Shown here piece by piece: positions 6,903 through 55,424 of a stretch of 64,000 bases of DNA. The translations under genes were made by a program, and so were the position numbers. How positions within the stretch are numbered: position 1 is the first letter of the stretch; each line of letters begins with the position of its first letter. The stretch is from Escherichia coli (GTDB lineage: Bacteria; Pseudomonadota; Gammaproteobacteria; Enterobacterales; Enterobacteriaceae), in NCBI RefSeq assembly GCF_016903815.1, contig NZ_CP069973.1. The stretch is one strand, 5' to 3'. Under the pieces are notes generated by a model that saw nothing but the letters and a program-made list of their open reading frames with translations, made no database searches and was not told where the DNA came from.

Positions 6903-7236
6903 TGGTTTATTCCCGCTGGTGCGGGGAACTCATCAGTGATATCCAACATTGCGGAGCTAAACGCGGTTTATCCCCGCTGGCGCGGGGAACTCTAATATCC
7001 CTGGCGATAATCAACCGGCTTACTCGGTTTATCCCCGCTGGCGCGGGGAACTCGAGAGCGAGGGGAGATTCCGGCAGGGCGTGCACGGTTTATCCCCGCT
7101 GGCGCGGGGAACTCGCGGGTATGCTCCGCTCCGTGTTCGACAAACTCGGTTTATCCCCGCTGGCGCGGGGAACTCAAGGTCGCGGGGACGCCACGGGCAG
7201 TCAATGTCGGTTTATCCCCGCTGGCGCGGGGAACTC
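6903..7236 (-). CRISPR. Type I-E CRISPR array, 6 repeats and 5 spacers, transcribed on the minus strand
   Basis: 29-bp repeats at 6903-6931 (3 mismatches, leader-distal), 6964-6992, 7025-7053, 7086-7114, 7147-7175, 7208-7236; five 32-bp spacers at 6932-6963, 6993-7024, 7054-7085, 7115-7146, 7176-7207. Confidence 0.95.
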
Positions 7237-26941: not shown

Positions 26942-26984
26942 AAAGCAACCTCAATAAGAAAAACTGCCGCGAAGGATAGCAGGA

Positions 26985-27352
26985 ATAAAAAAAGGGAGCA
27001 CTGTATTCACAGTGCTCCCGGTTCGTTTCGCAGCATTCCAGCTACTTTTGTTGCTCCCTGCTCATCCTTGACAACTTTTCCTCTGGCCTTGCGGCCAATC
27101 GTTCATCCTGAACTATTGCTTCCTGCTCACACCACCCCGATGTGATACTTCATCCTGAAGTGTCCCTGGCCTTCCTGACCCACCGAATCATCCTGACCGG
27201 TTCTCATTCTCCATCCTGGAGGTGTCCTTTAACGCGTCCTGCGTCATCCTCTTCGCTTCATCCAGAAGCCTTTCCCTGAAACACCATCCTGGTGTGTCCT
27301 TCAGAAGTGTCATCATCCTGATGTTCACTTCGTTGTCTGACTCCCTGTCGAC
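26985..27352 (-). ncRNA. csrB: CsrB sRNA (CsrA-sequestering, many GGA motifs)
   Basis: Minus strand starts GTCGACAGGGAGTCAGACAACGAAG (RC of 27328-27352), carries about 18 CAGGA(U)G-type repeats (seen as catcctg on plus) and ends in hairpin GGGAGCACTGTGAATACAGTGCTCCC plus U-run near 26985. Confidence 0.93.
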
Positions 27353-30500: not shown

Positions 30501-30649
30501 TCTCCCCTCCCCCGGTGACGTTTGTTGCCGGGTTTTCTCGTTTTTGGTCACTTACTCATCAACTCATTTCATTTGTTATATGAATGTTTCTTACCACCCT
30601 CACGCGACAAATATCATCACAGTCAATATGTCATACAATTTATATTGCA

Positions 30650-30665
30650 ACGCAAACGTTTCCCT
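30650..30665. promoter_or_regulatory. PurR-box-like motif between ppnN and sdaC
   Basis: ACGCAAACGTTTCCCT fits the PurR operator pattern ANGMAAACGTTTNCNT at every specified position; about 390 bp upstream of the sdaC ATG. Confidence 0.35.
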
Positions 30666-31056
30666 ATTTTCATAAACCGTATTTTATCGCTATGAAAAAG
30701 AAATTATCGCCATGATTAACTAAAAGTATTGATTTTTTCAGTTCAACCTACATATATTGCGCGCCCCGGAAGAAGTCAGATGTCGTTTAATGGGCAAATA
30801 TTGCCCTTAAATTCTCTTTTACTTTTAATTTACAGAGTAAAGCGTTGGGATAATCTATCTTCCAAGTAGATTATTGTATTTGGGATCAAGATCACTGATA
30901 GATACATAACTTGTGTGTATCTTTCCGCCCTCAAATTATTACGGCGGTAAATGATTAAGCCATCGCCGATAGACAGATTTCATTTTTACGGTCAGGCACC
31001 TTCCCGGGCTGAACTGGCTAAAAGCTGAATTATTTGCATTCCTCCAGGAGAAATAG

Positions 31057-32346
31057 ATGGAAACGACTCAAACCAGCACGATTGCGTCGAAAGACTCTCG
31101 TAGTGCCTGGCGCAAGACAGACACCATGTGGATGCTGGGCCTTTACGGCACGGCAATCGGCGCGGGCGTGCTGTTCCTGCCAATCAACGCCGGTGTTGGC
31201 GGTATGATCCCGCTGATCATCATGGCTATCCTTGCGTTCCCGATGACGTTTTTTGCTCACCGCGGCCTGACTCGCTTCGTACTGTCTGGTAAAAACCCGG
31301 GCGAAGACATCACCGAGGTTGTAGAAGAACACTTTGGTATTGGCGCAGGTAAACTGATTACCCTGCTCTACTTCTTCGCTATCTACCCGATCCTGCTGGT
31401 TTATAGCGTGGCAATCACCAATACCGTTGAAAGCTTCATGTCTCACCAGCTGGGTATGACGCCACCGCCGCGTGCGATTCTGTCGCTGATCCTGATCGTG
31501 GGTATGATGACCATCGTTCGCTTCGGTGAGCAGATGATCGTTAAAGCGATGAGTATTCTGGTATTCCCGTTTGTTGGCGTACTGATGCTGCTGGCTCTGT
31601 ACCTGATCCCGCAGTGGAACGGCGCTGCACTGGAAACGCTGTCTCTGGACACTGCATCTGCAACCGGAAACGGTCTGTGGATGACCCTGTGGCTGGCAAT
31701 TCCGGTAATGGTGTTCTCGTTCAACCACTCTCCGATCATCTCTTCTTTCGCCGTTGCGAAGCGTGAAGAGTACGGCGATATGGCAGAACAGAAATGCTCG
31801 AAGATCCTGGCATTCGCACACATCATGATGGTGCTGACCGTAATGTTCTTCGTCTTCAGCTGTGTACTGAGCCTGACTCCGGCAGACCTGGCTGCGGCTA
31901 AAGAGCAGAACATCTCGATTCTGTCTTACCTGGCTAACCACTTTAACGCACCGGTTATCGCGTGGATGGCTCCGATTATCGCGATTATCGCTATCACCAA
32001 ATCCTTCCTCGGTCACTACCTGGGCGCACGTGAAGGCTTCAACGGTATGGTGATTAAATCTCTGCGTGGTAAAGGTAAGTCTATCGAAATCAACAAGCTG
32101 AACCGTATCACTGCGCTGTTCATGCTGGTAACGACCTGGATTGTTGCCACCCTGAACCCGAGCATCCTGGGTATGATTGAAACCCTGGGCGGCCCAATCA
32201 TCGCGATGATCCTGTTCCTGATGCCGATGTACGCAATTCAGAAAGTACCGGCAATGCGTAAGTACAGCGGTCACATCAGCAACGTATTCGTTGTCGTGAT
32301 GGGTCTGATTGCAATCTCCGCAATCTTCTACTCTCTGTTCAGCTAA
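31057..32346 (+). CDS. sdaC: serine:H+ symporter
   Basis: 429-aa hydrophobic [34 protein letters not shown]... Confidence 0.95.
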
Positions 32347-32403
32347 GTCCTTTCGCGCCGCTTTCGGGCGGCGCTTCCTCCGTTTTAACGCGATGTATTT
32401 CCT

Positions 32404-33771
32404 ATGATTAGCGTATTCGATATTTTCAAAATCGGCATTGGCCCTTCCAGTTCTCATACCGTTGGACCAATGAAAGCGGGTAAACAATTTACCGACGATC
32501 TGATTGCCCGTAACCTGCTTAAAGACGTGACCCGCGTGGTGGTTGACGTGTACGGCTCGCTCTCTCTGACCGGTAAAGGCCACCACACTGATATCGCCAT
32601 TATTATGGGCCTGGCGGGTAACCTGCCGGATACCGTGGATATCGATTCCATCCCTGGTTTTATTCAGGATGTGAATACTCATGGTCGCCTGATGCTGGCA
32701 AACGGTCAGCATGAAGTGGAGTTCCCGGTTGATCAGTGCATGAACTTCCATGCAGACAACCTTTCTCTGCATGAAAACGGTATGCGCATTACCGCGCTGG
32801 CGGGCGATAAAGTCGTTTACAGCCAGACTTACTACTCTATTGGCGGTGGCTTTATCGTTGATGAAGAGCATTTTGGCCAGCAGAATAGCGCACCGGTTGA
32901 AGTTCCTTATCCGTACAGTTCAGCAGCCGATCTGCAAAAACATTGTCAGGAAACCGGGCTGTCACTCTCTGGCCTGATGATGAAAAATGAGCTGGCGCTG
33001 CACAGCAAAGAAGAGCTGGAACAGCACCTGGCGAACGTATGGGAAGTCATGCGTGGCGGTATTGAGCGCGGTATTTCCACCGAAGGCGTGTTGCCTGGCA
33101 AACTGCGCGTTCCACGCCGTGCTGCGGCACTACGCCGGATGCTGGTCAGCCAGGATAAAACCACCACTGACCCGATGGCGGTTGTTGACTGGATCAACAT
33201 GTTTGCACTGGCAGTGAACGAAGAGAACGCTGCTGGCGGACGCGTGGTGACTGCGCCGACTAACGGTGCGTGCGGGATTATCCCGGCAGTGCTGGCGTAC
33301 TACGACAAGTTTATCCGCGAAGTGAACGCTAACTCACTGGCTCGTTACCTGCTGGTAGCCAGTGCCATTGGTTCTCTTTATAAGATGAACGCGTCAATTT
33401 CTGGTGCTGAAGTCGGCTGCCAGGGTGAAGTTGGTGTGGCGTGCTCAATGGCGGCGGCTGGTCTGGCAGAGCTGTTAGGTGCAAGCCCGGCGCAGGTGTG
33501 CATCGCGGCGGAAATCGCCATGGAGCACAACCTCGGTCTGACGTGTGACCCGGTCGCCGGACAGGTCCAGGTGCCATGCATCGAGCGTAACGCCATTGCG
33601 GCAGTAAAAGCGGTGAACGCCGCACGTATGGCGCTACGCCGTACCAGCGAGCCGCGCGTCTGCCTCGATAAAGTTATCGAAACCATGTACGAAACAGGTA
33701 AAGATATGAACGCCAAGTACCGCGAAACCTCTCGCGGCGGCCTGGCAATGAAGATCGTTGCCTGCGATTAA
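32404..33771 (+). CDS. sdaB: L-serine dehydratase 2
   Basis: 455-aa [29 protein letters not shown]... Confidence 0.95.
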
Positions 33772-34638
<867 letters not shown>

Positions 34639-34644
34639 CGGCGA

Positions 34645-34672
34645 GCCGGATACGCCGCAAACGTCGTATCCG
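34645..34672. terminator. Bidirectional hairpin between convergent xni and fucO
   Basis: ccggatacg-ccgcaaacgt-cgtatccgg perfect stem. Confidence 0.5.
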
Positions 34673-34692
34673 GCATTATCACATCAGCGCAT

Positions 34693-35841
34693 TTACCAGG
34701 CGGTATGGTAAAGCTCTACAATATCCTCAAGCGTTGCTTCACGCGGGTTGCCACCGGTACAAACATCATTCAGTGCCGCCTGCGCCAGTGCCGGAATGTC
34801 TTCCTTGCGTACCCCAACATCACGCAAATGTGGCGGAATACCGACATCACGGTTGAGAGCAAACACCGCTTCAACAGCGGCATTACGCGCCTCTTCCAGG
34901 CTCATACCTTCCACTTTCACGCCCATAACGCGCGCGATATCGCGGTACTTCTCACCGGTAAAGTCAGCGTTATAGCGCATGACATGCGGTAGCAGGATGG
35001 CGTTTGCAACACCGTGTGGAGTGTTATAAAACGCGCCCAGTGGATGCGCCATACCATGCACCAACCCTAACCCAACATTCGAGAAGCCCATACCCGCAAC
35101 ATACTGCCCGAGCGCTATTTCTTCTCCGGCATCCTTATCACCAGCAACCGATCCTCGCAGCGCCCCAGCAATGATTTCAATCGCTTTAATGTGCAGTGCA
35201 TCGGTTAGCGCCCACGCGCCACGGGTAATATACCCCTCAATAGCATGAGTGAGCGCATCGACACCCGTCGCAGCTTTCAGCGCTGGAGGCATACCATCCA
35301 TCATGTCAGCGTCAATAAACGCCACCTGCGGGATATCATGCGGATCAACGCAAACAAACTTGCGCCGTTTTTCTTCGTCAGTGATCACGTAGTTAATGGT
35401 CACTTCTGCCGCAGTGCCTGCTGTGGTGGGGATTGCCAGAATCGGTACACTGGGTTTATTGGTCGGGGAAAGCCCTTCCAGGCTACGCACATCGGCAAAC
35501 TCCGGGTTGTTGCTGATAATGCCAATCGCTTTACAAGTATCCTGTGGAGAACCACCACCAATAGCGATCAGGTAATCCGCGCCGCTATTCTGGAATACAC
35601 CGAGCCCTTCTTTGACGACAGTAATTGTTGGGTTGGGCACTACGCCGTCGTAAATCGCCCATGCCAGCCCTGCAGCATCCATCTTATCGGTCACTTTCGC
35701 CACCACGCCGCATTGCACCAGCGTTTTATCGGTGACGATCAGCGCCTTCTGATAACCACGGCGTTTCACCTCATCGGTTAAAGCCCCAACAGCACCCCGA
35801 CCAAACCATGCCGTTTCGTTCAGAATCATTCTGTTAGCCAT
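34693..35841 (-). CDS. fucO: L-1,2-propanediol oxidoreductase (lactaldehyde reductase)
   Basis: ORF 34693..35844 (MMANRMILNE...); iron-containing alcohol dehydrogenase; start at first or second Met. Confidence 0.93.
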   Translation of the reverse strand: MANRMILNETAWFGRGAVGALTDEVKRRGYQKALIVTDKTLVQCGVVAKVTDKMDAAGLAWAIYDGVVPNPTITVVKEGLGVFQNSGADYLIAIGGGSPQDTCKAIGIISNNPEFADVRSLEGLSPTNKPSVPILAIPTTAGTAAEVTINYVITDEEKRRKFVCVDPHDIPQVAFIDADMMDGMPPALKAATGVDALTHAIEGYITRGAWALTDALHIKAIEIIAGALRGSVAGDKDAGEEIALGQYVAGMGFSNVGLGLVHGMAHPLGAFYNTPHGVANAILLPHVMRYNADFTGEKYRDIARVMGVKVEGMSLEEARNAAVEAVFALNRDVGIPPHLRDVGVRKEDIPALAQAALNDVCTGGNPREATLEDIVELYHTAW

Positions 35842-35868
35842 CATCCTTCTCCTTGTTGCTTTACGAAA

Positions 35869-36516
35869 TTACTCTTCAATTCGTAACCCATAGGTTTTGA
35901 ATTTCTCCAGCACTACGGCAATCTCTTCATCGCTCAGCACTGGCACCGGGTCCGTAATCGCCAGGGTCGTCAGGTAAAGTTGCGCCAGCACTTCAACTTC
36001 ATGCGCCAGCCATAACGCTTTTTCCAGATTCACCTCACAAGCGATAAGCCCATGATGTTGTAACAAAGTTGCCTTACGATTTTTGAGAGCCAGCGCAACA
36101 TGTTCAGAAAGTTCACGTGTTCCAAAGGTCGCATAAGGCGCGCAAGGAATAGAATTACCGCCCGCCGCCGCAATCATGTAGTGAATAGCGGGGATCGGTC
36201 GGTTAAGAATGGAAACTGCCGTGCAATGAACGGCATGATTGTGAACAACCGCGTTGGCATCCGGTCTGCTTTGATAGGCTGCCATATGGAAACGCCACTC
36301 GCTGGAAGGAATCTTACCTTCTTCGTATTTGCCGTTGCCATCAACATAGACAATCATATTCTCCGTCATTCTTTCATAAGGAATACCGCTGGGAGTAATC
36401 AACATGCCGTTTTCAAAACGTGTGCTGACATTCCCCGCTGTCCCCTGATTTAACCCAAGGCGCGTCATTTCCAGACAGGTTTCAATTATTTCACGGGATA
36501 AACGTGTTCTTTCCAT
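35869..36516 (-). CDS. fucA: L-fuculose-1-phosphate aldolase
   Basis: 215-aa ORF MERTRLSREIIETCLEMTRLGLNQGTAGNVS... Confidence 0.95.
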   Translation of the reverse strand: MERTRLSREIIETCLEMTRLGLNQGTAGNVSTRFENGMLITPSGIPYERMTENMIVYVDGNGKYEEGKIPSSEWRFHMAAYQSRPDANAVVHNHAVHCTAVSILNRPIPAIHYMIAAAGGNSIPCAPYATFGTRELSEHVALALKNRKATLLQHHGLIACEVNLEKALWLAHEVEVLAQLYLTTLAITDPVPVLSDEEIAVVLEKFKTYGLRIEE

Positions 36517-36648
36517 TTCTATTCTCCAGATACAGTTTCAGCTCGCCTTGTTGCGTAAAACAGCACCGCAAATGAAGACGGGGTTATTTTTAGTAAGGGG
36601 AGGCCACTGAATATCATTGTTCAGTAGCCTGATATCTTTTGGCGATTA

Positions 36649-37647
36649 TTATTTTTTTCTTATGCGCTTAATTAATTTCATTCCTACTTTAACTGTTTTT
36701 TTGACTGGTCTTTCTTCGATCGCGCTTAACATCATTTCGAACGCTTTTTCTGCCCAGGCATTTTCATCCTGCTGCATTGACCAGACATTGTTGGCGAGAA
36801 ATCCCAGCATAGGATGTTCATCGAAAGTGCCAATATTGATTTCTGGCGGTACAGCGCCAAGACGGTCGCGAATCGCGCGGACAGCGCCTTCAAGCACAGG
36901 CAAAGACGAGGCGATAAATGCCTGCGGACATCCCTGCTCTTCAATGAGTTTTTCCATAATGACATAGCCGCCTTCCGGAGTATTTACCGGACCTTCCCGC
37001 ACCCAATCGCGATGGGTAATCCCTTTTTTTGCCAACGCATTCAAATAACCTGTCAGACGATCGCTGATACTCGGCAAACCGGCATCTCCCAGCAAAAACC
37101 ATACTGGAGCCTGCCCGGCCTCAAGAATATTTTGCGTCAGCTTTTCTCCGCCAGAAATATTATTACTCTCTACCAATGCGTTATCGGTATATTTAAAATC
37201 ACGATCGAGTAAAACCATGGGCTTACGAATTTTGCGTAAATGATGCTGCTGATTTTCCAGCGTCGAAGGAACAATAAAAAGACCATCTACATTTCGTGCG
37301 ATAAATGCTTTCGTCAATTTATTTTCATAGTCAACATCATCATAAGTGCAACTGATTGTAAGTTGATATCCGGAACGTCGACAGCGTTGTTCGAGTTTTT
37401 CTGCCAGCGTAGCAAAAAAGACGTTGGATATGTTGGGAACAATCAACCCTAATGTATCAGTTTTGTTAAGCTTAAGGCTGCGAGCGGAATGATTAATGAT
37501 ATAACCATAGCGTTCAACATATTCATTGATACGCGTTTGGGTTTTGACGCTGATTCGATATTGTTCCGCTTTTCCATTTAGCACCAGTCGCACGGTCGTA
37601 ACCGATAAATTCAGGTCGCTGGCTATCTGCTCTACTGTTTTAGCCAT
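36649..37647 (-). CDS. LacI/GalR-family transcriptional regulator
   Basis: 332-aa ORF with N-terminal HTH (MAKTVEQIASDLNLSVTTVRLVLNG...) and periplasmic-binding-like effector domain. Confidence 0.85.
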   Translation of the reverse strand: MAKTVEQIASDLNLSVTTVRLVLNGKAEQYRISVKTQTRINEYVERYGYIINHSARSLKLNKTDTLGLIVPNISNVFFATLAEKLEQRCRRSGYQLTISCTYDDVDYENKLTKAFIARNVDGLFIVPSTLENQQHHLRKIRKPMVLLDRDFKYTDNALVESNNISGGEKLTQNILEAGQAPVWFLLGDAGLPSISDRLTGYLNALAKKGITHRDWVREGPVNTPEGGYVIMEKLIEEQGCPQAFIASSLPVLEGAVRAIRDRLGAVPPEINIGTFDEHPMLGFLANNVWSMQQDENAWAEKAFEMMLSAIEERPVKKTVKVGMKLIKRIRKK

Positions 37648-37711
37648 AGGTATTTCCCAGTTAACATCCAGACGTCAAATCACAATCATAAAAGTATTTT
37701 CAACTTTTGTC

Positions 37712-39292
37712 TTATTGCATCAGTTGGTTAACCGCCTGTTGTTGCTCCCAAAGCGTCAGGTAAACCCGGTATTTACGCTCTAAAAATTCACGGCGTTGTG
37801 GATTTACCTGAATAATCTCTCCGGCTTCAACCATTGCTTTACACGCAGATGTAAAATCCCCCCATGCTCCGCTGGCAACAGCGCCGCTAATTGCTGCGCC
37901 CAACGTAACGGCATCTTCTTCTTGCATCAGGTGGATATCGCAACCTGTCACGTCTGCATATTCGCGTAGCCATAAAGGGTTGTGCGTTGCACCACCACAT
38001 AATGTTAATCGGGTAATGGTATGCCCATTTTCCCGCAGAGTTTCAATAATATGTCTGGTGCCAAAGGCTATTGCCTGTAAAGTCGCAAGATAAAGTCGCG
38101 CGAGCTGATTTTCACCACGCTCCAGTGTTAAGCCATAAACACTGCCTCTGGCATCGGGCCGCGCTCGTGGCGAACGGTTGCCGTGATGATCGGCAAGCAC
38201 ATGTAAATTTCGTGTGGGTTCTGACTCGTTAGCTTCAAGGGCTGCTACCCATTCATTAATCAGTTGAATCGGATGACATCCGCGTTGCTGCGCCTTGTGA
38301 AAAAGATTTGCGCTTGCCCCTGACTCCTGAAGCGTCCACTCCACCAGCGCCCCTGCGGCGCTTTGCCCGCCTTCGGTTAGCCAGTAATTTGGCAACATGG
38401 CCGACCAGTATGGCCCCCAGACGCCAGGGGTGAATATCTCTTTTTCACTACACAGCATATGGCAGTTCGACGTTCCGCTTATCAATGCCAGCGTTCCTAA
38501 TGGGTGAGCGCCAGCCAGCGCCACGCCACCGGCATGGGCATCAATCAAGCCACTGGCCACGATAACATTAGTCGTTAATCCTAACTCTTCAGCAGCTGTG
38601 GCGGTTAACGTTCCCACGGCAGCGCCAGGCGGAAGAATGTCGGCAGGAATTCTTTCAAGCATATCGGTCAGGTCTATCGATTCCAGTAAGCTATGGCTAA
38701 AGCGTTGCTCATGAGCTAGATAATTCCATTTACACGTTAGCGTGCATAATCCCGCGACGTCTCGCCCTGTTGCTTTCCAGACCAGAAAATCCGCCAGATC
38801 GAAAAAGCGATGAGCGGCCTGCCAGGTTTGCGGTAGATGCGTCTTCAACCAACGTAACTTTGGTAACTCCATCTCGACGCTCACTTCGCCGCCAACGTAG
38901 CGCAATGCGGGATCCTTCATTGCGTTAATCTGCGCCGTCTCGACAGTTGCACGATGATCCATCCACATAATAATGTCGTGATTCGCAGATCCACCGGACG
39001 AAACCGCTAAACCCTGGCCTTGTTCATCAAGAACAACCAGCGAGCAGGTAGCGTCAAAACCCAGTGAGCGAATTGCGGAAATGGGGATGCCTGCCAAAGC
39101 TGTCGCCTCTTTCACCGTTTTACAAACTTGTTGCCAGATCTCTGCCGAAGACTGTTCGACACGCTCGCCGCCAGGGCGAAACTGGGAGACGGGCGCAGTA
39201 GCGAATGCCAGCCTGTGGCCACTGGCACTGTAAACGCCTGCCCTGACACTGGCCGATCCGACATCGACACCGAGAAAATAACCGTTGTGCAT
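37712..39292 (-). CDS. FGGY-family pentulose-type kinase (candidate D-ribulokinase)
   Basis: ORF 37712..39412; start set at MHNGYFLGVDVGSASVRAGVY with AGGGAGG RBS (527 aa); DHHGNRSP motif typical of the ribulokinase/pentulose-kinase branch. Confidence 0.8.
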   Translation of the reverse strand: MHNGYFLGVDVGSASVRAGVYSASGHRLAFATAPVSQFRPGGERVEQSSAEIWQQVCKTVKEATALAGIPISAIRSLGFDATCSLVVLDEQGQGLAVSSGGSANHDIIMWMDHRATVETAQINAMKDPALRYVGGEVSVEMELPKLRWLKTHLPQTWQAAHRFFDLADFLVWKATGRDVAGLCTLTCKWNYLAHEQRFSHSLLESIDLTDMLERIPADILPPGAAVGTLTATAAEELGLTTNVIVASGLIDAHAGGVALAGAHPLGTLALISGTSNCHMLCSEKEIFTPGVWGPYWSAMLPNYWLTEGGQSAAGALVEWTLQESGASANLFHKAQQRGCHPIQLINEWVAALEANESEPTRNLHVLADHHGNRSPRARPDARGSVYGLTLERGENQLARLYLATLQAIAFGTRHIIETLRENGHTITRLTLCGGATHNPLWLREYADVTGCDIHLMQEEDAVTLGAAISGAVASGAWGDFTSACKAMVEAGEIIQVNPQRREFLERKYRVYLTLWEQQQAVNQLMQ

Positions 39293-39344
39293 AAAGCCTC
39301 CCTGACGCTGGAGATAACGGGGATGAAAATTCATCCCCAATTTT

Positions 39345-40295
39345 TTATTTCTTACCGAATGGGTGCAGGAGTTTGTCGATTTCTGGCGTGTTAATATTCT
39401 CGGCATTAACAAATTTCACGGGAATATCGATCTCTTTTTCAACGGCTTGCCCCGAAAGGGCCGCGTTCAACGTTTTGATCCCTTGATAGCCAATCTGGTA
39501 TGCATCCTGAACAACAAAGCCCTGAATGACGCCGTTCTTCAGGAAGTTAATAATCGCTTCCGTACTATCAAAACCAATGACCTTCACCTTACCTTTCAGA
39601 TTCTGGCTATCAATGGCATTCGCCACCCCGAGCGTTGAACCTTCATTGGTGCCATAGATCCCAGCAAGATCGGGATTGGCCTGAATCATATCGATAGTTT
39701 TATCCATCGCTTTTTGCGGGTCACCATCGCTGTACTGAACGGGTAAGACTTTAATGTCAGGATATTTTTCTTTCATACGCTCCATGAAGCCTTCCGAGCG
39801 TTCAATAGCGGAAGATGTTCCTGCAACGTGCGCGATAATCCCAACTTTCCCTTTATTATTTACCTGCGAGGCTAAGGCATCAGCTGCCTGAGCACCTGCT
39901 TTACGGTTATTGGTGGCGACAAAACTCACCGGAATGTCTGAATTGATGCCTGAATCAAAGGTCACCACTTTGATACCGCGTGAATTTGCCGTTTCTACCA
40001 GTGGGGCGAGCGCATTCGCGTCGAGGGCTGCCAGAAGCAAGCCATTCGGTTTCTGCGCCATCGCATTTTCGACTAACTGAATTTGCTCGGCTATTTGCGT
40101 TTCATCAGCCGGGCCAACATAGCTGGTTTTATCCCCCAACTCTTTAGCCGCAGCTTCAGTCCCCATTTTTACGGTTTGCCAGAATTCATGTTGGAAACCT
40201 TTACTAACAACCGGAAGATTTAAATCCTTCGCCAGTGCGCTGGAACTTACGCAAGCCAGCAGAGATAACGCATAGATAAAATGCCTGGTTTTCAT
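39345..40295 (-). CDS. periplasmic sugar-binding protein (RbsB-like) of the ABC transporter
   Basis: ORF 39345..40418; start set at MKTRHFIYALSLLACVSSSALA (signal peptide) giving 316 aa. Confidence 0.8.
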   Translation of the reverse strand: MKTRHFIYALSLLACVSSSALAKDLNLPVVSKGFQHEFWQTVKMGTEAAAKELGDKTSYVGPADETQIAEQIQLVENAMAQKPNGLLLAALDANALAPLVETANSRGIKVVTFDSGINSDIPVSFVATNNRKAGAQAADALASQVNNKGKVGIIAHVAGTSSAIERSEGFMERMKEKYPDIKVLPVQYSDGDPQKAMDKTIDMIQANPDLAGIYGTNEGSTLGVANAIDSQNLKGKVKVIGFDSTEAIINFLKNGVIQGFVVQDAYQIGYQGIKTLNAALSGQAVEKEIDIPVKFVNAENINTPEIDKLLHPFGKK

Positions 40296-40368
40296 TGTTG
40301 TACTCCGTTCTGAGTGAATCACCCTTAACGTCAGGGCAGTTGTTTCCCGATAAAACAGGGAGCCTAAG

Positions 40369-41352
40369 TCAACGAATCTTTTTGCGTAATGTATCGAGGT
40401 AAACGGCAGCGACCACAACGACGCCCATCGCGACCATTTGCCAGAACTGGGAGACGCCCATTAAATTGAGGCCATTTTTCAGTACACTCATAATGAAAGC
40501 GCCAATGATTGTGCCGCCAATAGTGCCAATACCGCCCATTAAGCTGGTTCCGCCAATCACTACCGCGGCAATAGCTTCCAGTTCATAACCCACACCTACC
40601 GTCGGTTGTCCGGAGTTGAGACGAGATGCCAGAATGACACCTGCAATCCCCGTTAATAATCCACAGAAGGCATAGACGAAAATTTTCACGCGCTGAACTT
40701 TAATACCAGAAAGATGAGCAGCAACTTCATTACTGCCTACGGCATAGACATAGCGACCAATGACGGTTTTCTTCAGGATGTAAGCGCCGACAAGCGCTAC
40801 AATGACAAGGTAGAAAACAGGATAAGGCAGCACATCAAATAAGCGTCCCTGAGCGAGCGTTTTGAACATCGGGTAATCGGCAAAATAGATGGCGCGCCCG
40901 TCGGTCATCACCATATTGATACCTCTGACGGACATCATCAGGCCCAAGGTAGCGATAAATGGTGGAATGGTCATTTTAGTGACCAACAAACCATTCACAT
41001 AGCCGCACATTCCACCGGCTAAAACACCGGCAATAATACACACTGGCAGCGGCAGGCCCAGTGTGGCGCAAATCCCCACGGCGACACCAGAAAAAGCCAC
41101 CACGGAGCCCAATGAAAGATCGATGCCCGCGGTAATAATGACGAAAGTTACCCCAATGGCCATAATGCCGATAACCGACGTTTGCAGAGCAATCGTCATG
41201 ATATTTTCGGTATTAAAGAAAAAGGGAGAGCTGAAACTAAAAAACAGCACTAATATAATTAAGCTAAAAAGAGGCGCAAGGCGCATCAAAAGTTCTTTAT
41301 TTATCTTTATTTTCTTATTATTACTGTCTGGAGAGGTTACAGAGATAGTCAT
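40369..41352 (-). CDS. sugar ABC transporter permease (RbsC-like)
   Basis: 327-aa hydrophobic ORF with multiple TM segments. Confidence 0.8.
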   Translation of the reverse strand: MTISVTSPDSNNKKIKINKELLMRLAPLFSLIILVLFFSFSSPFFFNTENIMTIALQTSVIGIMAIGVTFVIITAGIDLSLGSVVAFSGVAVGICATLGLPLPVCIIAGVLAGGMCGYVNGLLVTKMTIPPFIATLGLMMSVRGINMVMTDGRAIYFADYPMFKTLAQGRLFDVLPYPVFYLVIVALVGAYILKKTVIGRYVYAVGSNEVAAHLSGIKVQRVKIFVYAFCGLLTGIAGVILASRLNSGQPTVGVGYELEAIAAVVIGGTSLMGGIGTIGGTIIGAFIMSVLKNGLNLMGVSQFWQMVAMGVVVVAAVYLDTLRKKIR

Positions 41353-41355
41353 AAT

Positions 41356-42870
41356 TTAATCCTCTAACGTCGCGTATTGCATAATTTTTTCTTGTGTCGC
41401 TTCTTTTGCGCTAAGTTCGCCGGTAATTCGACCACTGCGCATCACTAAAATACGGTCGCACATTCCTAACACCTCAGGCAATTCAGAGGAGATCATGATG
41501 ATTGATTTCCCTTTTGCCACCAGGCGATTCATTAACTCATAGATTTCCAGTTTGGCGCCAACATCAATGCCGCGAGTGGGTTCATCGAAGATTAAAATAT
41601 CAGTATCTTTACACACCCAACGTGCAATTATAATTTTCTGCTGGTTTCCTCCACTTAGATTTAATGCCGCCTGTTCAAGATTTGGCGTTTTAATCCTTAA
41701 CGCTTTTACCTGTTCCTCACTGGTTTGTTGGCAACGACGCGAATCGACATTCCCAAAACGATCGGAATATTCAGGGTAGTTTCCTAACATAATATTTCGT
41801 TCAACAGATAAATTCAGCGCCAGCCCTTCTTTTTTGCGGTCTTCCGTCAGGTAACTAATTCCCTGCTGAATAGCATCCGAAATATCTTTAATAACGGTTT
41901 CCTTACCATTTAATTTTAGCGTTCCGCTGTCAATAGAATCCGCACCAAAAATCGCACGCGCAAGTTCAGTACGCCCCGCGCCCATCAGTCCGGCAAAGCC
42001 GAGGATCTCGCCACGATAAAGCGTAAAATTAATATCGTTCAGGACGCCTTTGCGCGTCAGTCCGTTTACCTCCAGAACCGGAATCCGCTGCTGCAAGGCC
42101 TCGCGGCGGGGATAGATATTCCCTAAATCGCGACCAACCATCATGGCAATCAGATCGCTGATTTTTACGCACTCATAATCCACCGTGCTGATGTACTGAC
42201 CATCACGCATTACAGTCGCACGGTCGGCAATTAGCGCCAACTCTTCCAGACGGTGGGAGATATAAACAATGCCGGTCCCCTGCTCTTTCAATAACCGGGT
42301 GACGCGAAATAAGCTTTCAATTTCAGTTTCTGTTAACGCCGCAGTAGGTTCATCCATAATGAGAATCCTGGCGTTAACTGAAATGGCCTTGGCAATTTCT
42401 ACCATCTGCTGCTGAGCTACCGTAAGGTCGGCAACCAGAGTATCTGGTTTGATCGCCAAATTTAATTTTTGCAAAATTTCAATCGTCGCCTGGCGTTGCT
42501 GTTTTTCATCCAGACGCCAGCGATTTTTTTTACAAAACTCCCTGCCGATAAAAATATTTTCTTCTACTGTAAGCTCGGGAAATAAATTAAATTCCTGGTG
42601 AATAATAGTAATACCTACGTTTTGCGCACTTAACGGATCAGAAAATGAGACTGGTTTATCTTCAAAAATTATTTCGCCTTCATCAGGTTGATAAACCCCC
42701 GACAAAATTTTCATTAAGGTAGATTTTCCTGCACCATTTTCACCTAATAATGCATGAACCTCGCCCCGGCGTAGGGAAAATTGCACGTCATTAAGCGCCA
42801 ACACTCCAGGAAAGCGTTTGGTGATATGCTTCATTTGCAAAAATGTTTCGGACATTGCAGCTTTCCTCAA
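41356..42870 (-). CDS. sugar ABC transporter ATP-binding protein with two NBDs (RbsA/CUT2-like)
   Basis: 504-aa ORF with Walker A GENGAGKST, second P-loop GLMGAGRTE and signature LSGGNQQK. Confidence 0.85.
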   Translation of the reverse strand: MRKAAMSETFLQMKHITKRFPGVLALNDVQFSLRRGEVHALLGENGAGKSTLMKILSGVYQPDEGEIIFEDKPVSFSDPLSAQNVGITIIHQEFNLFPELTVEENIFIGREFCKKNRWRLDEKQQRQATIEILQKLNLAIKPDTLVADLTVAQQQMVEIAKAISVNARILIMDEPTAALTETEIESLFRVTRLLKEQGTGIVYISHRLEELALIADRATVMRDGQYISTVDYECVKISDLIAMMVGRDLGNIYPRREALQQRIPVLEVNGLTRKGVLNDINFTLYRGEILGFAGLMGAGRTELARAIFGADSIDSGTLKLNGKETVIKDISDAIQQGISYLTEDRKKEGLALNLSVERNIMLGNYPEYSDRFGNVDSRRCQQTSEEQVKALRIKTPNLEQAALNLSGGNQQKIIIARWVCKDTDILIFDEPTRGIDVGAKLEIYELMNRLVAKGKSIIMISSELPEVLGMCDRILVMRSGRITGELSAKEATQEKIMQYATLED

Positions 42871-42987
42871 TAATCAGAAACTGAAAATGTGAAGTACGGC
42901 ATAAACGTCGCTACTAAAGCCATCTCCACTGTGATACGAATAACCTTTGAATAAATATTCATCGCATCAATCTATTCTTCGCATTTT

Positions 42988-43003
42988 GCTAACTCGAGTT
43001 AGC
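42988..43003. promoter_or_regulatory. 16-bp perfect palindrome GCTAACTCGAGTTAGC (candidate operator), upstream of the ABC operon
   Basis: Read directly; 118 bp upstream of the ATPase start codon on the minus strand; identical to the site at 43227. Confidence 0.5.
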
Positions 43004-43226
43004 GATCGCCTTTTAAAGCTATTTTAGGTATACAAATTAGCCAAATCATTTGAGTTAAAACTGTGATGCATAACCATTAAAATCTAATAACCATATGATT
43101 ATACGTAAAATTTATTTTTCTCCCGCTAAATAATAATTTGACAGAGATCGTATTTTAACCACTTCTCGTGAAGCCCCTCACATTTCAACAACAAAAAAGT
43201 TGTGCATAAAAAGCCTACAAACCTAA

Positions 43227-43242
43227 GCTAACTCGAGTTAGC
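43227..43242. promoter_or_regulatory. 16-bp perfect palindrome GCTAACTCGAGTTAGC (candidate operator), upstream of fucI
   Basis: Read directly; 83 bp upstream of the fucI ATG; identical to the site at 42988, 239 bp away. Confidence 0.5.
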
Positions 43243-43324
43243 AAATAATGACCAATACTACTGCTTCGGTGGTTTCCTTTCTCCGCCTTAGCAGAGCGCC
43301 AATAAAGCGAGATGAGGAATCCTG

Positions 43325-45100
43325 ATGAAAATTAATACGTTACCGAAAATTGGTATCCGCCCGGTTATTGACGGTCGTCGCATGGGTGTTCGTGAGTCGC
43401 TTGAAGAACAAACAATGAATATGGCGAAAGCCACGGCCACACTGCTGACCGAGAAACTGCGCCATGCCTGCGGAGCTGCCGTCGAGTGTGTCATTTCCGA
43501 TACCTGTATCGCGGGTATGGCTGAAGCCGCTGCTTGCGAAGAAAAATTCAGCAGCCAGAATGTAGGCCTCACCATTACGGTAACGCCTTGCTGGTGCTAT
43601 GGCAGTGAAACCATCGACATGGATCCAACCCGCCCGAAAGCCATTTGGGGCTTTAACGGCACTGAACGTCCCGGCGCTGTTTACCTGGCAGCGGCTCTGG
43701 CAGCTCACAGCCAGAAAGGCATCCCGGCATTCTCCATTTACGGTCATGACGTTCAGGATGCCGATGACACATCGATTCCAGCCGATGTTGAAGAAAAACT
43801 GCTGCGCTTTGCCCGCGCCGGTTTGGCAGTCGCCAGCATGAAAGGTAAAAGCTATCTGTCGCTGGGCGGCGTTTCGATGGGTATCGCTGGTTCCATCGTT
43901 GATCACAACTTCTTTGAATCCTGGCTGGGAATGAAAGTCCAGGCGGTGGATATGACCGAACTGCGTCGCCGTATCGATCAGAAGATTTACGACGAAGCCG
44001 AACTGGAAATGGCGCTGGCCTGGGCTGATAAAAACTTCCGCTACGGCGAAGATGAAAATAACAAACAGTATCAACGCAATGCCGAGCAAAGCCGCGCAGT
44101 TCTGCGCGAAAGTTTACTGATGGTGATGTGTATCCGCGACATGATGCAAGGCAACAGCAAACTGGCCGATATTGGTCGCGTGGAAGAATCACTTGGCTAC
44201 AACGCCATCGCTGCGGGCTTCCAGGGACAACGCCACTGGACCGATCAATATCCCAATGGTGACACTGCCGAAGCGATCCTCAACAGTTCATTTGACTGGA
44301 ATGGCGTGCGCGAACCCTTTGTCGTGGCGACCGAAAACGACAGTCTTAACGGCGTGGCAATGCTAATGGGTCACCAGCTCACCGGCACCGCTCAGGTATT
44401 TGCCGATGTGCGTACCTACTGGTCACCAGAAGCAATTGAGCGTGTAACGGGGCATAAACTCGATGGACTGGCAGAACACGGCATCATCCATTTGATCAAC
44501 TCAGGTTCTGCTGCGCTGGACGGTTCCTGTAAACAACGCGACAGCGAAGGTAACCCGACGATGAAGCCACACTGGGAAATCTCTCAGCAAGAGGCTGACG
44601 CTTGCCTCGCCGCTACCGAATGGTGCCCGGCGATCCACGAATACTTCCGTGGCGGCGGTTACTCTTCCCGCTTCCTTACCGAAGGCGGCGTCCCGTTCAC
44701 CATGACTCGTGTCAACATCATCAAAGGCCTGGGACCGGTACTGCAAATCGCGGAAGGCTGGAGCGTGGAATTGCCGAAGGATGTGCATGACATCCTCAAC
44801 AAACGCACCAACTCAACCTGGCCAACCACCTGGTTTGCACCGCGCCTCACCGGTAAAGGGCCGTTTACGGATGTGTACTCGGTAATGGCGAACTGGGGCG
44901 CTAACCATGGGGTTCTGACCATCGGCCACGTTGGCGCAGACTTTATCACTCTCGCCTCCATGCTGCGTATCCCGGTATGTATGCACAACGTTGAAGAGAC
45001 CAAAGTGTATCGTCCTTCTGCCTGGGCTGCGCACGGCATGGATATTGAAGGCCAGGATTACCGCGCTTGCCAGAACTACGGTCCGTTGTACAAGCGTTAA
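43325..45100 (+). CDS. fucI: L-fucose isomerase
   Basis: 591-aa [41 protein letters not shown]...; GAGGAA RBS. Confidence 0.95.
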
Positions 45101-45178
45101 TACATTACTCCCTGATGTGATGCCCGGTCGCTCCGGCTACCGGGCCTGAACAAGCAAGAGTGGTTAGCCGGATAAGCA

Positions 45179-46627
45179 ATGTTATCCGGCTATATTGCAG
45201 GAGCGATTATGAAACAAGAAGTTATCCTGGTACTCGACTGTGGCGCGACCAATGTCAGGGCCATCGCGGTTAATCGGCAGGGCAAAATTGTTGCCCGCGC
45301 CTCAACGCCTAATGCCAGCGATATCGCGATGGAAAACAACACCTGGCACCAGTGGTCTTTAGACGCCATTTTGCAACGCTTTGCTGATTGCTGTCGGCAA
45401 ATCAATAGTGAACTGACTGAATGCCACATCCGCGGTATCGCCGTCACCACCTTTGGTGTGGATGGCGCTCTGGTAGATAAGCAAGGCAATCTGCTCTATC
45501 CGATCATTAGCTGGAAATGTCCGCGAACAGCAGCGGTTATGGACAATATTGAACAGTTGATCTCCGCACAGCGGTTGCAGGCTATTTCTGGCGTCGGAGC
45601 CTTTAGTTTCAATACGTTATATAAGTTGGTGTGGTTGAAAGAAAATCATCCACAACTGCTGGAACGCGCGCACGCCTGGCTCTTCATTTCGTCGCTGATT
45701 AACCACCGTTTAACCGGCGAATTCACTACTGATATCACGATGGCCGGAACCAGCCAGATGCTGGATATCCAGCAACGCGATTTCAGTCCGCAAATTTTAC
45801 AAGCCACCGGTATTCCACACCGACTCTTCCCTCGTCTGGTGGAAGCGGGTGAACAGATTGGTACGCTACAGAACAGCGCCGCAGCAATGCTCGGCTTACC
45901 CGTTGGCATACCGGTGATTTCCGCAGGTCACGATACCCAGTTCGCCCTTTTTGGCGCAGGTGCCGAACAAAATGAACCCGTGCTCTCCTCCGGTACATGG
46001 GAAATTTTAATGGTTCGCAGCGCCCAGGTTGATACTTCGCTGTTAAGTCAGTACGCCGGTTCCACCTGCGAACTGGATAGCCAGGCAGGGTTGTATAACC
46101 CAGGTATGCAATGGCTGGCATCCGGCGTGCTGGAATGGGTGAGAAAACTGTTCTGGACGGCTGAAACACCCTGGCAAATGTTGATTGAAGAGGCTCGTCT
46201 GATCGCGCCTGGCGCGGATGGCGTGAAAATGCAGTGTGATTTATTGTCGTGTCAGAACGCTGGCTGGCAAGGAGTGACGCTTAATACTACGCGGGGGCAT
46301 TTCTATCGCGCGGCGCTGGAAGGGTTAACTGCGCAATTACAGCGCAATCTACAGATGCTGGAAAAAATCGGGCACTTTAAAGCCTCTGAATTATTGTTAG
46401 TCGGCGGAGGAAGTCGCAACACATTGTGGAATCAGATTAAAGCCAATATGCTTGATATTCCGGTAAAAGTTCTCGACGATGCCGAAACGACCGTCGCAGG
46501 AGCTGCGCTGTTCGGTTGGTATGGCGTAGGGGAATTTAACAGCCCGGAAGAAGCCCGTGCACAGATTCATTATCAGTACCGTTATTTCTACCCGCAAACT
46601 GAACCTGAATTTATAGAGGAAGTGTGA
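45179..46627 (+). CDS. fucK: L-fuculokinase
   Basis: 482-aa FGGY kinase ORF; synteny. Confidence 0.93.
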
Positions 46628-46628
46628 A

Positions 46629-47051
46629 ATGCTGAAAACAATTTCGCCGTTAATTTCTCCCGAACTATTGAAAGTGCTGGCAGAGATGGGACATGGAGAT
46701 GAAATTATTTTTTCCGATGCTCACTTTCCCGCCCATTCGATGGGACCGCAGGTGATCCGCGCTGATGGCCTGTTGGTGAGCGACTTGCTCCAGGCGATTA
46801 TCCCGTTATTTGAACTGGACAGTTACGCACCGCCGCTGGTGATGATGGCAGCGGTAGAAGGTGACACTCTCGATCCTGAAGTAGAACGACGTTACCGTAA
46901 TGCGCTTTCACTACAAGCCCCGTGTCCTGACATCATCCGCATCAATCGTTTTGCGTTTTATGAACGGGCGCAAAAAGCCTTTGCGATCGTTATCACAGGC
47001 GAACGAGCGAAGTACGGGAATATTCTTTTAAAAAAAGGGGTAACACCGTAA
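46629..47051 (+). CDS. fucU: L-fucose mutarotase
   Basis: 140-aa ORF; synteny. Confidence 0.93.
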
Positions 47052-47108
47052 TCTCATACCGGTACGCCCGCATGACGCGGGCGGTTATCGAATGATGGGG
47101 TGAAAAAT

Positions 47109-47840
47109 ATGAAAGCGGCACGCCAGCAAGCGATAGTCGACCTGCTGCTGAACCATACCAGCCTGACCACGGAAGCTCTCTCTGAACAGCTAAAGGTCAG
47201 TAAAGAAACCATTCGTCGCGATCTCAATGAATTACAGACGCAGGGTAAAATTCTGCGCAATCATGGACGCGCTAAATATATCCACCGTCAAAATCAAGAC
47301 AGTGGCGATCCCTTTCACATCAGGCTGAAAAGCCATTATGCGCATAAAGCAGATATCGCGCGCGAGGCGCTCGCGTGGATTGAAGAAGGGATGGTGATAG
47401 CCTTAGACGCCAGTTCAACTTGCTGGTATCTGGCACGCCAGTTGCCTGACATCAACATTCAGGTCTTCACCAATAGCCATCCGATTTGCCATGAACTCGG
47501 TAAACGCGAACGCATTCAACTGATCAGTTCCGGCGGCACACTTGAGCGCAAATATGGCTGTTACGTCAATCCCTCGCTGATTTCCCAACTTAAATCGCTG
47601 GAAATCGATCTGTTTATTTTTTCTTGTGAAGGGATCGATAGCAGCGGCGCACTGTGGGACTCCAATGCCATCAACGCTGATTACAAATCGATGCTATTAA
47701 AACGTGCCGCGCAATCGTTGTTATTGATTGATAAAAGTAAATTTAATCGTTCAGGGGAAGCCCGCATCGGGCATCTGGATGAGGTAACGCACATTATTTC
47801 TGATGAGCGCCAGGTTGCAACTTCTTTGGTAATAGCCTGA
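47109..47840 (+). CDS. fucR: DeoR-family L-fucose operon activator
   Basis: ORF 47100..47840; start set at MKAARQQAIVDLLLNHTSL giving 243 aa. Confidence 0.9.
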   Translation: MKAARQQAIVDLLLNHTSLTTEALSEQLKVSKETIRRDLNELQTQGKILRNHGRAKYIHRQNQDSGDPFHIRLKSHYAHKADIAREALAWIEEGMVIALDASSTCWYLARQLPDINIQVFTNSHPICHELGKRERIQLISSGGTLERKYGCYVNPSLISQLKSLEIDLFIFSCEGIDSSGALWDSNAINADYKSMLLKRAAQSLLLIDKSKFNRSGEARIGHLDEVTHIISDERQVATSLVIA

Positions 47841-47883
47841 CGGAAAGGGTAGCAGGCCGGAGACGACGCCCCGGCCTTGCCTG

Positions 47884-48984
47884 TTATCGCTCGTCGCGAC
47901 GACCACCCACCGCAGCCCAGATGCGGCGGACGTGCACCGTCACTTCTTCGCGATCGTGATACAACTGCCGCGCCTGAATCTGAGCATTTATGCCATGTTC
48001 ATCAAGCTGTGCCTGAATATACGCCAGATTGTGTGACACTTCTTCGTAGCGTTTTTTCATCGGCAGTTTGAGGTTGAAAATGGTTTCACGACACCAGCCA
48101 TTAACCAGCCACTGCGCCATCAATGCCGCAACTTTCGCCGGTTTTTCAACCATATCGCATACCATCCAGGAGATATTGCTGCGCGTCGGACGGAATTTGA
48201 AACCGTCTTCCCGCAGCCACGTCACCTGTCCGGTATCCATCAGACTTTGCGCCATCGGGCCGTTGTCGACGGAATAAACCCACATGTTGCGCTTCACCAG
48301 TTGGTAGGTCCAGCCGCCAGGGCAAGCGCCTAAATCCACCGCCCACATCCCGTTCGCCAGGCGTTCATCCCACTCATCCGCAGGAATAAACACATGAAAT
48401 GCCTCTTCCAGTTTGAGTGTGGAACGACTCGGCGCATCTGCCGGAAATTTCAGGCGCGGAATGCCCATATAGAACGGCGAATTATTGTTGCTGTATGAGT
48501 AACCGGTATAGCAGCAGCCTGGTGCAATAAAGAATACATGCACAACCGGACGCTTCGGCGTTTCATAGTTCGCCAGCACCCCAGCATCGCGCAAGGCAGC
48601 GCGTAGCGGCACGGTGAATTTACGGCAGAATTTCAGCAACTCTTTGCTTTCGTTGGTATCGGCAACTTCAACACGCAGTTCACCGCCCTTCTCTACTACA
48701 CCCTGTAACATGCCGACAATGGGGGTAATACGATCTTCTGGCGGCAAATGCTGCAGGAGTTCCCCCACCACAAACCACTGGCGGGCAAAAATTAATGAAC
48801 TGAACGGCAGCTCACGGATTAACTTATCGCCATCATCAGGTTGATAACATTCATAAATGACATAACCCGCATTCTCTTTCACGCGGGCAAAACCGAAAAT
48901 TTCCCGCTGGCCGGCTTTATCGGTAATTTCTGCGGCGCACTCTTTTTCAAACCCCGGACGGCACAGCAATACAACCTTATTCAT
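47884..48984 (-). CDS. rlmM: 23S rRNA 2'-O-ribose C2498 methyltransferase
   Basis: 366-aa ORF; synteny. Confidence 0.9.
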
Positions 48985-49372
48985 GACTTACGCCCTTGCG
49001 CTTTAAACGGATAGCACCAACTAACATTAACGCCCAGCCCGCAAGGAAGCTCACGCCGCCAACCGGAGTGACAAACGCCCACAAACGCAGATGGGACAGT
49101 GCCAGGCAATAAAGGCTGCCGCTGAACAGCACCGTGCCTAACGCGAGGAAAACGCTACTCCAGTAAAACCAGATACTGATGCGACGCTGCATTGCCACCG
49201 CCAGACCTAAGATCGCCAGCGTATGAAACGCCTGGTATTCGAGACCGGTCTGGATCCAGCCCATCTCAACGGCCCCCATGGTTTTACTTAACACATGCGC
49301 GCCAAAAGCGCCCAGAGCCACAAAAATGAAGCCGCTAATGGCGGCGAAAATCAGCATAAAACGGCTGGTCAT
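48977..49372 (-). CDS. ygdD: DUF423 inner-membrane protein
   Basis: 131-aa hydrophobic ORF; overlaps the rlmM start. Confidence 0.85.
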
Positions 49373-49390
49373 GGTCGTACCCTACGTAAA

Positions 49391-50308
49391 TTATTGTTCA
49401 TAACGAAAGCGGAATTTTTCTTGTTCAGCAGCGGCTTTCGCCAGGATCCATTGACGAAAGGCGGCTATTTTACCCAGTTCTGCCTGGCTGTCATGACAAA
49501 CCAGATAAAAAGCGTTTTTACTGACCAGAACATCATTAAACGGGCAAACAAGACGTCCGGCCTCGATTTCAGATTGCGCCATCACGTTATTTGCCAGCGC
49601 CACTCCCTGCCCGTGGATAGCCGCTTGCAGCACCATGGCGCTATGGCTAAAAATTGGCCCTTGCTGAACGTTGATATGATTTAACCCCAACTGTCGGGTA
49701 TATGTCTGCCAGTCACGGCGCGACGCATCATGTAATAACGTATGTTTAGCCAGATCTTCCGGGGTCTTCAAGGGTTTTTCGCCAGTCAGCAGTAGCGGCG
49801 AACACACCGGCAATAAATATTCGGCGTACAGTTTTTCCACCCGTAGCCCCGGCCAGTTGCCCCGACCATAAAATATCGCCACATCAACATCATCCGCCAG
49901 CTTATCTTCCTGACGATCAACCGCCTGGATTCGAACGTCAATTCCCGGATAAGCTGAATTAAAGCTGGAAAGTCGCGGAACCAACCAATGAATGGCGAAA
50001 CTGGGGAGTAAACTGACCGTCAACGCCCCCTTGGCGCTACGGGCCTGGAGTTTACGCGTCGCTTCGGTTAATTGCGAAAATATCTCTTTGATATCGAGGA
50101 AATAGCTTTGCCCTTCCTCGGTCAGCAGGAGTGAACGATTACGGCGGCGGAACAGTTTTAGCCCCAAAAAATCCTCAAGAGACTTGATTTGATGACTTAC
50201 TGCGGCCTGGGTCACAAAAAGCTCTTCTGCTGCGCGAGTGAAACTTAAATGGCGTGCTGCAGCATCAAAAACTCGTAAGGCATTTAGCGGTGGTAATCGT
50301 TTAGACAT
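49391..50308 (-). CDS. gcvA: LysR-family glycine cleavage regulator
   Basis: 305-aa ORF with LysR HTH (MSKRLPPLNALRVFDAAARHLSFTRAAEEL...). Confidence 0.95.
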   Translation of the reverse strand: MSKRLPPLNALRVFDAAARHLSFTRAAEELFVTQAAVSHQIKSLEDFLGLKLFRRRNRSLLLTEEGQSYFLDIKEIFSQLTEATRKLQARSAKGALTVSLLPSFAIHWLVPRLSSFNSAYPGIDVRIQAVDRQEDKLADDVDVAIFYGRGNWPGLRVEKLYAEYLLPVCSPLLLTGEKPLKTPEDLAKHTLLHDASRRDWQTYTRQLGLNHINVQQGPIFSHSAMVLQAAIHGQGVALANNVMAQSEIEAGRLVCPFNDVLVSKNAFYLVCHDSQAELGKIAAFRQWILAKAAAEQEKFRFRYEQ

Positions 50309-50436
50309 GGCTTTTAAACTTTGATGTTAAATGAATTTAACAATTAGATCACACTGTGTAACCTATTAGTTTTTTTAATCTGAGCCATTATAAATTGTCC
50401 GTTGAGCTTCTACCAGCAAATACCTATAGTGGCGGC

Positions 50437-50642
50437 ACTTCCTGAGCCGGAACGAAAAGTTTTATCGGAATGCGTGTTCTGGTGAACTTTTGGCTTACGG
50501 TTGTGATGTTGTGTTGTTGTGTTTGCAATTGGTCTGCGATTCAGACCATGGTAGCAAAGCTACCTTTTTTCACTTCCTGTACATTTACCCTGTCTGTCCA
50601 TAGTGATTAATGTAGCACCGCCTAATTGCGGTGCTTTTTTTT
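50437..50642 (+). ncRNA. gcvB: GcvB sRNA
   Basis: Starts ACTTCCTGAGCCGGAACGAAAAG, contains the G/U-rich region GTTGTGATGTTGTGTTGTTGTGTTTG and ends in hairpin GCACCGCCTAATTGCGGTGC plus U-run; divergent from gcvA. Confidence 0.9.
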
Positions 50643-50658
50643 ACCTTGCGATCGCGAA

Positions 50659-50886
50659 TTACTGATCCAGTTCGACCATCTCTTTCACGTCAGTACGGTT
50701 GATCTGCTGTTTGTTGCCATTAGCGTCTTTATACGAAATCATACCGGTATCGTTATCAGTCTGTGGTTTGCCGTCAGAGACGATGGTACGTCCGTCATTG
50801 GTGTGCATCACATAGTTCGAACCGGAACAGGCGCTCAGGGCAAAAGTCAGCATACAGGCAGAAATAATTGCGGCAGTCTTTTTCAT
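50659..50886 (-). CDS. ygdI: small lipoprotein (DUF903)
   Basis: ORF 50659..50889; [20 protein letters not shown] lipobox. Confidence 0.85.
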
Positions 50887-51077
50887 CATCTTCTCCTTAA
50901 AGCGATTAATAAATCTTAATAGTATTGATTAACAGGCTAAAATTAACGCCTAACACTATTCAGCATATGTTACTGACGCGGCTTCGCCAGGATATCCAGA
51001 TAATTCTGATGGTTAGCACTCTCCTTGTATCAAAGTGAATTTTGCGTCACGATCGGTGCATCAAGCCGAGGAGTACC

Positions 51078-53635: not shown

Positions 53636-53735
53636 TGCCTGATGCGCTACGCTTATCAGGCCTACATAACTCCTGCAATATTTTGGATTTGCATGATTTG
53701 TAGGCCGGATAAGGCGTTCACGCCGCATCCGGCAT
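53636..53735. repeat. BIME: two REP units in opposite orientation
   Basis: gcctgatgcgctacgcttatcaggcctac and aggccggataaggcgttcacgccgcatccggcatg; flanked by near-identical direct repeats gaggttatccctcaccct / gaggttacccctcaccct. Confidence 0.75.
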
Positions 53736-55127: not shown

Positions 55128-55204
<77 letters not shown>

Positions 55205-55237
55205 ATTAAAATTTGATGAAGTAAAGCAGTACGGTGA

Positions 55238-55314
<77 letters not shown>

Positions 55315-55347
55315 ATCAAATTTGATGAAGTAAAAGCAGTACGGTGA

Positions 55348-55424
<77 letters not shown>

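Follow-up and report, generated by a model that had tools for sequence, protein, structure and literature searches.

A complete gcvB gene identical to that of K-12 in an Escherichia coli chromosomal window, with sdaC most likely outside its targets

Organization of the gcvA–gcvB–ygdI locus

We analysed a 64-kb stretch of Escherichia coli DNA (hereafter the window), which is base-for-base identical to positions 3187464–3251463 of the chromosome of strain 7/2 (NZ_CP023820.1). A sequence-only reading of the window had placed the gene of the GcvB small RNA (sRNA), divergent from gcvA, at 50309–50658. That interval does contain gcvB, but it corresponds to the entire 350-bp gcvA–ygdI intergenic region; the RNA gene itself takes up only 206 nt within it, at 50437–50642. 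The divergent arrangement was confirmed, with gcvA on the minus strand and gcvB on the plus strand, separated by a 128-bp spacer that holds the gcvB promoter and a GcvA repeat (IR1). The order gcvA–gcvB–ygdI–csdA is the same in the window and in K-12. The features of the locus are as follows.

49391–50308, minus strand: gcvA, LysR-type activator, ORF of 305 amino acids, carrying this annotation in both K-12 and strain 7/2
50365–50379, no strand: putative GcvA inverted repeat IR1, ATTAG-n5-TTAAT, read from the sequence, centred at −65 from the gcvB start
50387–50401, no strand: expected place of the weak second GcvA repeat IR2, centred at −43, placed after PMC5002191 and adjoining the −35 box
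50402–50430, plus strand: sigma-70 promoter of gcvB, with −35 box TTGAGC (50402), 17-nt spacer and −10 box TATAGT (50425), 9 of 12 matches in a consensus scan
50437–50642, plus strand: gcvB, full-length 206-nt GcvB sRNA, from Rfam RF00022 and identity to K-12 b4443
50659–50889, minus strand: ygdI, lipoprotein gene

The gcvB start at 50437 lies 7 nt downstream of the −10 box and agrees with the 5' ends of both the Rfam model and the K-12 annotation. The product of gcvA is the activator of gcvB and gcvTHP, a role taken from the literature (including PMC9299463 and PMC5002191). Phylogenetic footprinting located the better conserved repeat, IR1, at −65 and the least conserved GcvA repeat, IR2, at −43 (PMC5002191). 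Consistently, the centre of IR1 lies at −65 in the window, and ATTATAAATTGTCCG, found at the expected place of IR2, fits the consensus poorly. The motif CTAAT is present on the minus strand at 50365–50369, within IR1. When taken alone as a GcvA motif, CTAAT was uninformative, as shuffled sequences had more matches than the 56 counted in the window, and it was rejected as such; it carries weight only through its position inside the published IR1.

Identity, conservation and structure of the GcvB RNA

The whole window was scanned against all 4227 Rfam families. The GcvB family (RF00022) matched at 50437–50642 on the plus strand with 199 bits, above the gathering score of 42 (E = 1.1e-46), and the untruncated match spans model positions 1–204 of 204. 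Alignment with K-12 MG1655 gave identity at 206 of 206 nt to b4443 (NC_000913.3, 2942696–2942901). These are the two checks that the sequence-only reading had proposed, with failure to match the covariance model named as refutation, and together they bear out its claim of a complete GcvB running from the 5' end to the terminator. The 5' end that it quoted, ACTTCCTGAGCCGG, is present at 50437–50450, and so is the G/U-rich target-binding region, GGTTGTGATGTTGTGTTGTTGTGTTTGCAATT, at 50499–50530.

Over the 371 bases aligned with K-12, there are only two substitutions, and both lie upstream of the RNA: T in place of A at 50313, 4 nt before the gcvA ATG, and G in place of A at 50356, −81 from the gcvB start. 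Both fall outside IR1 and IR2. A 551-bp segment that includes the two positions is 100% identical in at least 12 of the genomes listed, among them E. coli C and BLR(DE3).

Of 5426 complete E. coli genomes, all but one contain a match to the 206-nt gcvB sequence; among these 5425, the identity reaches at least 99% in 5389. Two records matched at only 80–90% identity, and one of the matching places is on a plasmid record. In NZ_AP042483.1, gcvB matches in two places, the better of which covers 61%, and this split suggests an insertion.

The strain 7/2 RefSeq record has no gcvB feature, although the gene is annotated in K-12. We sampled eight other E. coli genomes across the ranking of matches, and no feature lies under the gcvB match in any of them; seven of these unannotated genomes have the full 206 nt at 100% identity, the exception being NZ_AP042483.1 with its partial match. 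Because K-12 annotates gcvB and many records have no feature under a 100% match, the missing feature in the strain 7/2 record reflects the annotation pipeline.

The predicted structure of the RNA further agrees with that of GcvB. Folding with ViennaRNA gave −62.1 kcal/mol, more stable than expected from 200 shuffled sequences (z = −3.6), and this fold concurs with the Rfam consensus structure on the main GcvB elements, which are listed below with nucleotide positions in the RNA.

50443–50497, plus strand: stem-loop 1, nt 7–61, from the Rfam consensus structure and the MFE and centroid folds
50499–50527, plus strand: R1, the G/U-rich seed, nt 63–91, from the sequence and the pairing scan
50530–50548, plus strand: stem-loop 2, nt 94–112, from the Rfam structure and the fold
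50550–50570, plus strand: stem-loop 3 and U6, the internal terminator t1, nt 114–134, from the terminator scan
50571–50599, plus strand: seeds R2 (about nt 135–150) and R3 (about nt 151–163), an exact match to the Rfam consensus
50614–50642, plus strand: terminator t2, an 8-bp hairpin and U8, nt 178–206, from the terminator scan and the Rfam structure

R1, which pairs with the CA-rich sites of most targets (PMC9299463), is unpaired over nt 71–93 in the centroid fold, with nt 63–64 and 67–70 paired. The R3 positions named in published point mutants, G156, G160 and C162 (PMC9299463), carry the correct letters in this sequence. In the terminator scan, the t1 hairpin (50550–50564) reads GGTAGCAAAGCTACC and is followed by TTTTTT; the GC-rich t2 hairpin (50614–50635) reads AGCACCGCCTAATTGCGGTGCT and is followed by T8, forming the 3' end of the 206-nt RNA. 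The two terminators t1 and t2 are known to give RNAs of about 130 and 206 nt (PMC1557403).

Comparison with known systems places the gene within its family. The window and K-12 GcvB (b4443) share the same 206 nt, promoter hexamers, IR1, t1 and t2, R1–R3 and the neighbours gcvA and ygdI, and differ only at 50313 and 50356, two positions of the spacer that precedes the RNA. The GcvB RNAs of Salmonella and Yersinia belong to the same family, with the same synteny to gcvA, a two-terminator layout and R1-based repression of dppA and oppA (PMC9299463, PMC1557403). The Salmonella RNA, however, differs from that of E. coli at 10 nt, and that of Y. pestis is 77% identical (PMC9299463, PMC1557403); the window carries the E. 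coli form, not that of Salmonella or Yersinia. Every defining feature of GcvB that could be tested was found here, namely the covariance-model match, the reference identity, the synteny with gcvA, the seeds and the terminators, and we found no argument against the identification. The segment 50437–50642 is thus almost certainly the canonical E. coli gcvB gene itself, which is already known.

A mechanical ATG-to-stop ORF of 46 codons lies wholly inside gcvB on the plus strand (50470–50610), which would make GcvB a dual-function RNA that also encodes a 46-amino-acid peptide. Its ATG, however, falls within the stem-loop 1 loop and lacks a properly spaced Shine–Dalgarno sequence upstream (aaaagttttatcggaATG), the ORF crosses R1 and both structured stem-loops, where RNA function explains the conservation, and the GcvB RNA is not translated according to the literature (PMC1557403). 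Given this start context and RNA-explained conservation, we rejected the ORF as a real gene, and the chance that it is one is close to nil.

Pairing of GcvB with known targets and with sdaC

The sequence-only reading had also proposed that GcvB probably targets the transcript of sdaC, a gene of the same window.

31057–32346, plus strand: sdaC, serine transporter gene, followed by sdaB; 19 kb from gcvB in the window

For each of 74 genes, we scanned the stretch between −150 and +60 relative to the start codon; the window supplied 49 of these genes, and five K-12 loci of known targets the other 25. Sliding 28-nt segments were folded as duplexes with all of GcvB, and the cost of opening both partners was included. 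Known targets ranked high among the 74 genes: argT was first (−25.2 kcal/mol), cycA third, hisQ fourth, dppA fifth, oppA sixth and sstT twelfth. The argT, dppA, oppA and sstT sites were recovered via R1, and those of cycA and hisQ via the R2/R3 region. Since published seeds bring all six of these targets into the first 12 places, the scan detects real sites. The second rank went to gcvA but is artefactual: its 150-nt upstream region extends over the first 23 nt of gcvB on the opposite strand and gives a simple antisense match, and the gene was dropped from the background. The background consists of 66 non-target genes, not the whole genome, with a mean of −7.9 and a standard deviation of 2.3 kcal/mol.

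The proposed targeting of sdaC found no such support. Its best site ranked 18 of 74 at −9.97 kcal/mol, and 15% of the 66 background genes have sites at least as strong. This sdaC site would pair R3 (nt 153–172) with the leader at 30961–30977, which corresponds to −96 to −80 relative to the start codon. The core of the duplex is formed by nine contiguous pairs, one of them G–U, between GAUAGACAG in the leader and CUGUCUGUC in R3; when extended, it has a hybrid energy of −16.8 kcal/mol, which weakens to the value above after accessibility costs. Regulation of sdaC by GcvB through this site has several points in its favour: other targets do use R3 as a seed (PMC9299463), the control would be functionally plausible as GcvB represses another serine transporter, sstT, and the site is the same in this strain and in K-12. 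Nearly all GcvB sites, however, lie between −60 and +20, where sdaC ranked only 33 of 74 (−7.12 kcal/mol); in the 74-gene scan, complementarity of sdaC to R1, R2 or R3 near the translation initiation region was not above background. In addition, 30961–30977 is only a putative part of the sdaC transcript, suggested by a consensus promoter match at 30729–30758.

Published target data likewise argue against this regulation. More than 50 verified GcvB targets have been compiled from RIL-seq, CLASH and MAPS (PMC9299463, 2021, Table 1). There is no sdaC entry in this table, and 'sda' appears nowhere in the paper; the serine/threonine transporter listed is sstT, which has more chimeric reads than any other target. 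Among the rows listed from the CLASH supplement, the sole sdaC chimera is with guaA. The available parts of the literature examined that names both GcvB and sdaC contain no link between the two. As far as the accessible text of these sources goes, sdaC appears as an ArcZ target (Papenfort 2009 and later work), is tabled under OmrA, or is described as ruled by Crp, Lrp and serine. The sdaC leader shows five differences from K-12, none of them in the −96 to −80 site or in the ribosome-binding site, and the K-12 data therefore apply to the sdaC gene of this strain.

ArcZ is reported to be an Hfq-dependent sRNA that represses sdaC by pairing at −13 to −3, near the ribosome-binding site. This is the kind of control that the sequence-only reading had assigned to GcvB, but the documented regulator is ArcZ, not GcvB. 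Collectively, sdaC is most likely not a GcvB target, and its documented sRNA regulator is ArcZ. The complementarity between GAUAGACAG and CUGUCUGUC, being within the background range, is probably due to chance. We consider regulation of sdaC by GcvB through the R3 site very unlikely. The more specific proposal, in which R3 (nt 153–172) pairs with the leader at 30961–30977 and sdaC is co-regulated by ArcZ and GcvB, is a shade less probable still. The statement that sdaC is a target was an unsupported guess, with a slim chance, similarly low, of being true nevertheless. If it were true, a second serine transporter and the sdaCB serine-catabolic operon would join the GcvB regulon beside sstT.

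Working model, genomic surroundings and implications

The signals found at the locus are compatible with a model in which gcvB would be transcribed rightward from a sigma-70 promoter overlapping the divergent gcvA control region. Following the literature on the K-12 RNA, GcvA bound at about −65 is expected to activate gcvB at high glycine, with GcvR counteracting it, and both the 206-nt RNA and a form of about 130 nt, which ends at t1, are expected to bind Hfq. The single-stranded seeds, mainly R1 and less often R2 or R3, would then base-pair with more than 50 mRNAs, at their ribosome-binding sites or close to them; these mRNAs mostly encode amino-acid and peptide transporters and biosynthetic enzymes. 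Such pairing would block translation and lower mRNA stability, and the SroC sponge would in turn lead to decay of GcvB by RNase E. Control by GcvA, GcvR and glycine, Hfq binding, target repression and the SroC sponge are taken from PMC9299463, where they are described for the identical K-12 RNA. The present analysis itself supports the identity and completeness of the RNA, its structure, the promoter and terminator signals, the synteny, and in-silico pairing with six known targets.

Several other features of the window were observed in the course of the analysis. A full-length CsrB sRNA lies between yqcC and syd at 26984–27343 on the minus strand (RF00018, 382.9 bits, model positions 1–356 of 356); the strain 7/2 RefSeq record leaves it unannotated, as it does gcvB. 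The ES036 (CssrF) sRNA (RF02751) was matched in the tcdA–mltA spacer at 53658–53700 on the minus strand, with 46.5 bits (gathering score 37.6). At 55128–55421 on the plus strand there are three tandem, apparently identical initiator-type tRNA-Met genes in the metZWV arrangement, scoring 61.4 bits each and annotated as tRNA-Met in the strain 7/2 record. That record also annotates a CRISPR array at 6903–7236 on the plus strand, between ygcE and queE; cas genes do not adjoin it within the window.

Between fucA and fucI, a segment of about 6.8 kb (36496–43312) replaces the 5' end of K-12 fucA, the fucA–fucP spacer and fucP. It encodes a LacI-family regulator, an FGGY-family kinase and a three-gene sugar ABC transporter, all on the minus strand. 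The fucose permease gene, fucP, is absent, a tblastn search giving no match to it, and the fucA flanking the segment is only 91.7% identical to that of K-12. The part of the window from 30000 to 50000 is covered to at least 80% in only 376 of the 5425 matching E. coli genomes.

Work on GcvB dates back to 2000, and a copy identical to the reference matters little in itself. Since the RefSeq record of strain 7/2, as well as many from other E. coli, does not annotate gcvB, finding the gene there requires an RNA-family scan. Proximity to GcvB combined with a function in amino-acid transport does not amount to evidence of targeting by GcvB: the serine transporter gene under GcvB control is sstT, and sdaC is a target of ArcZ.
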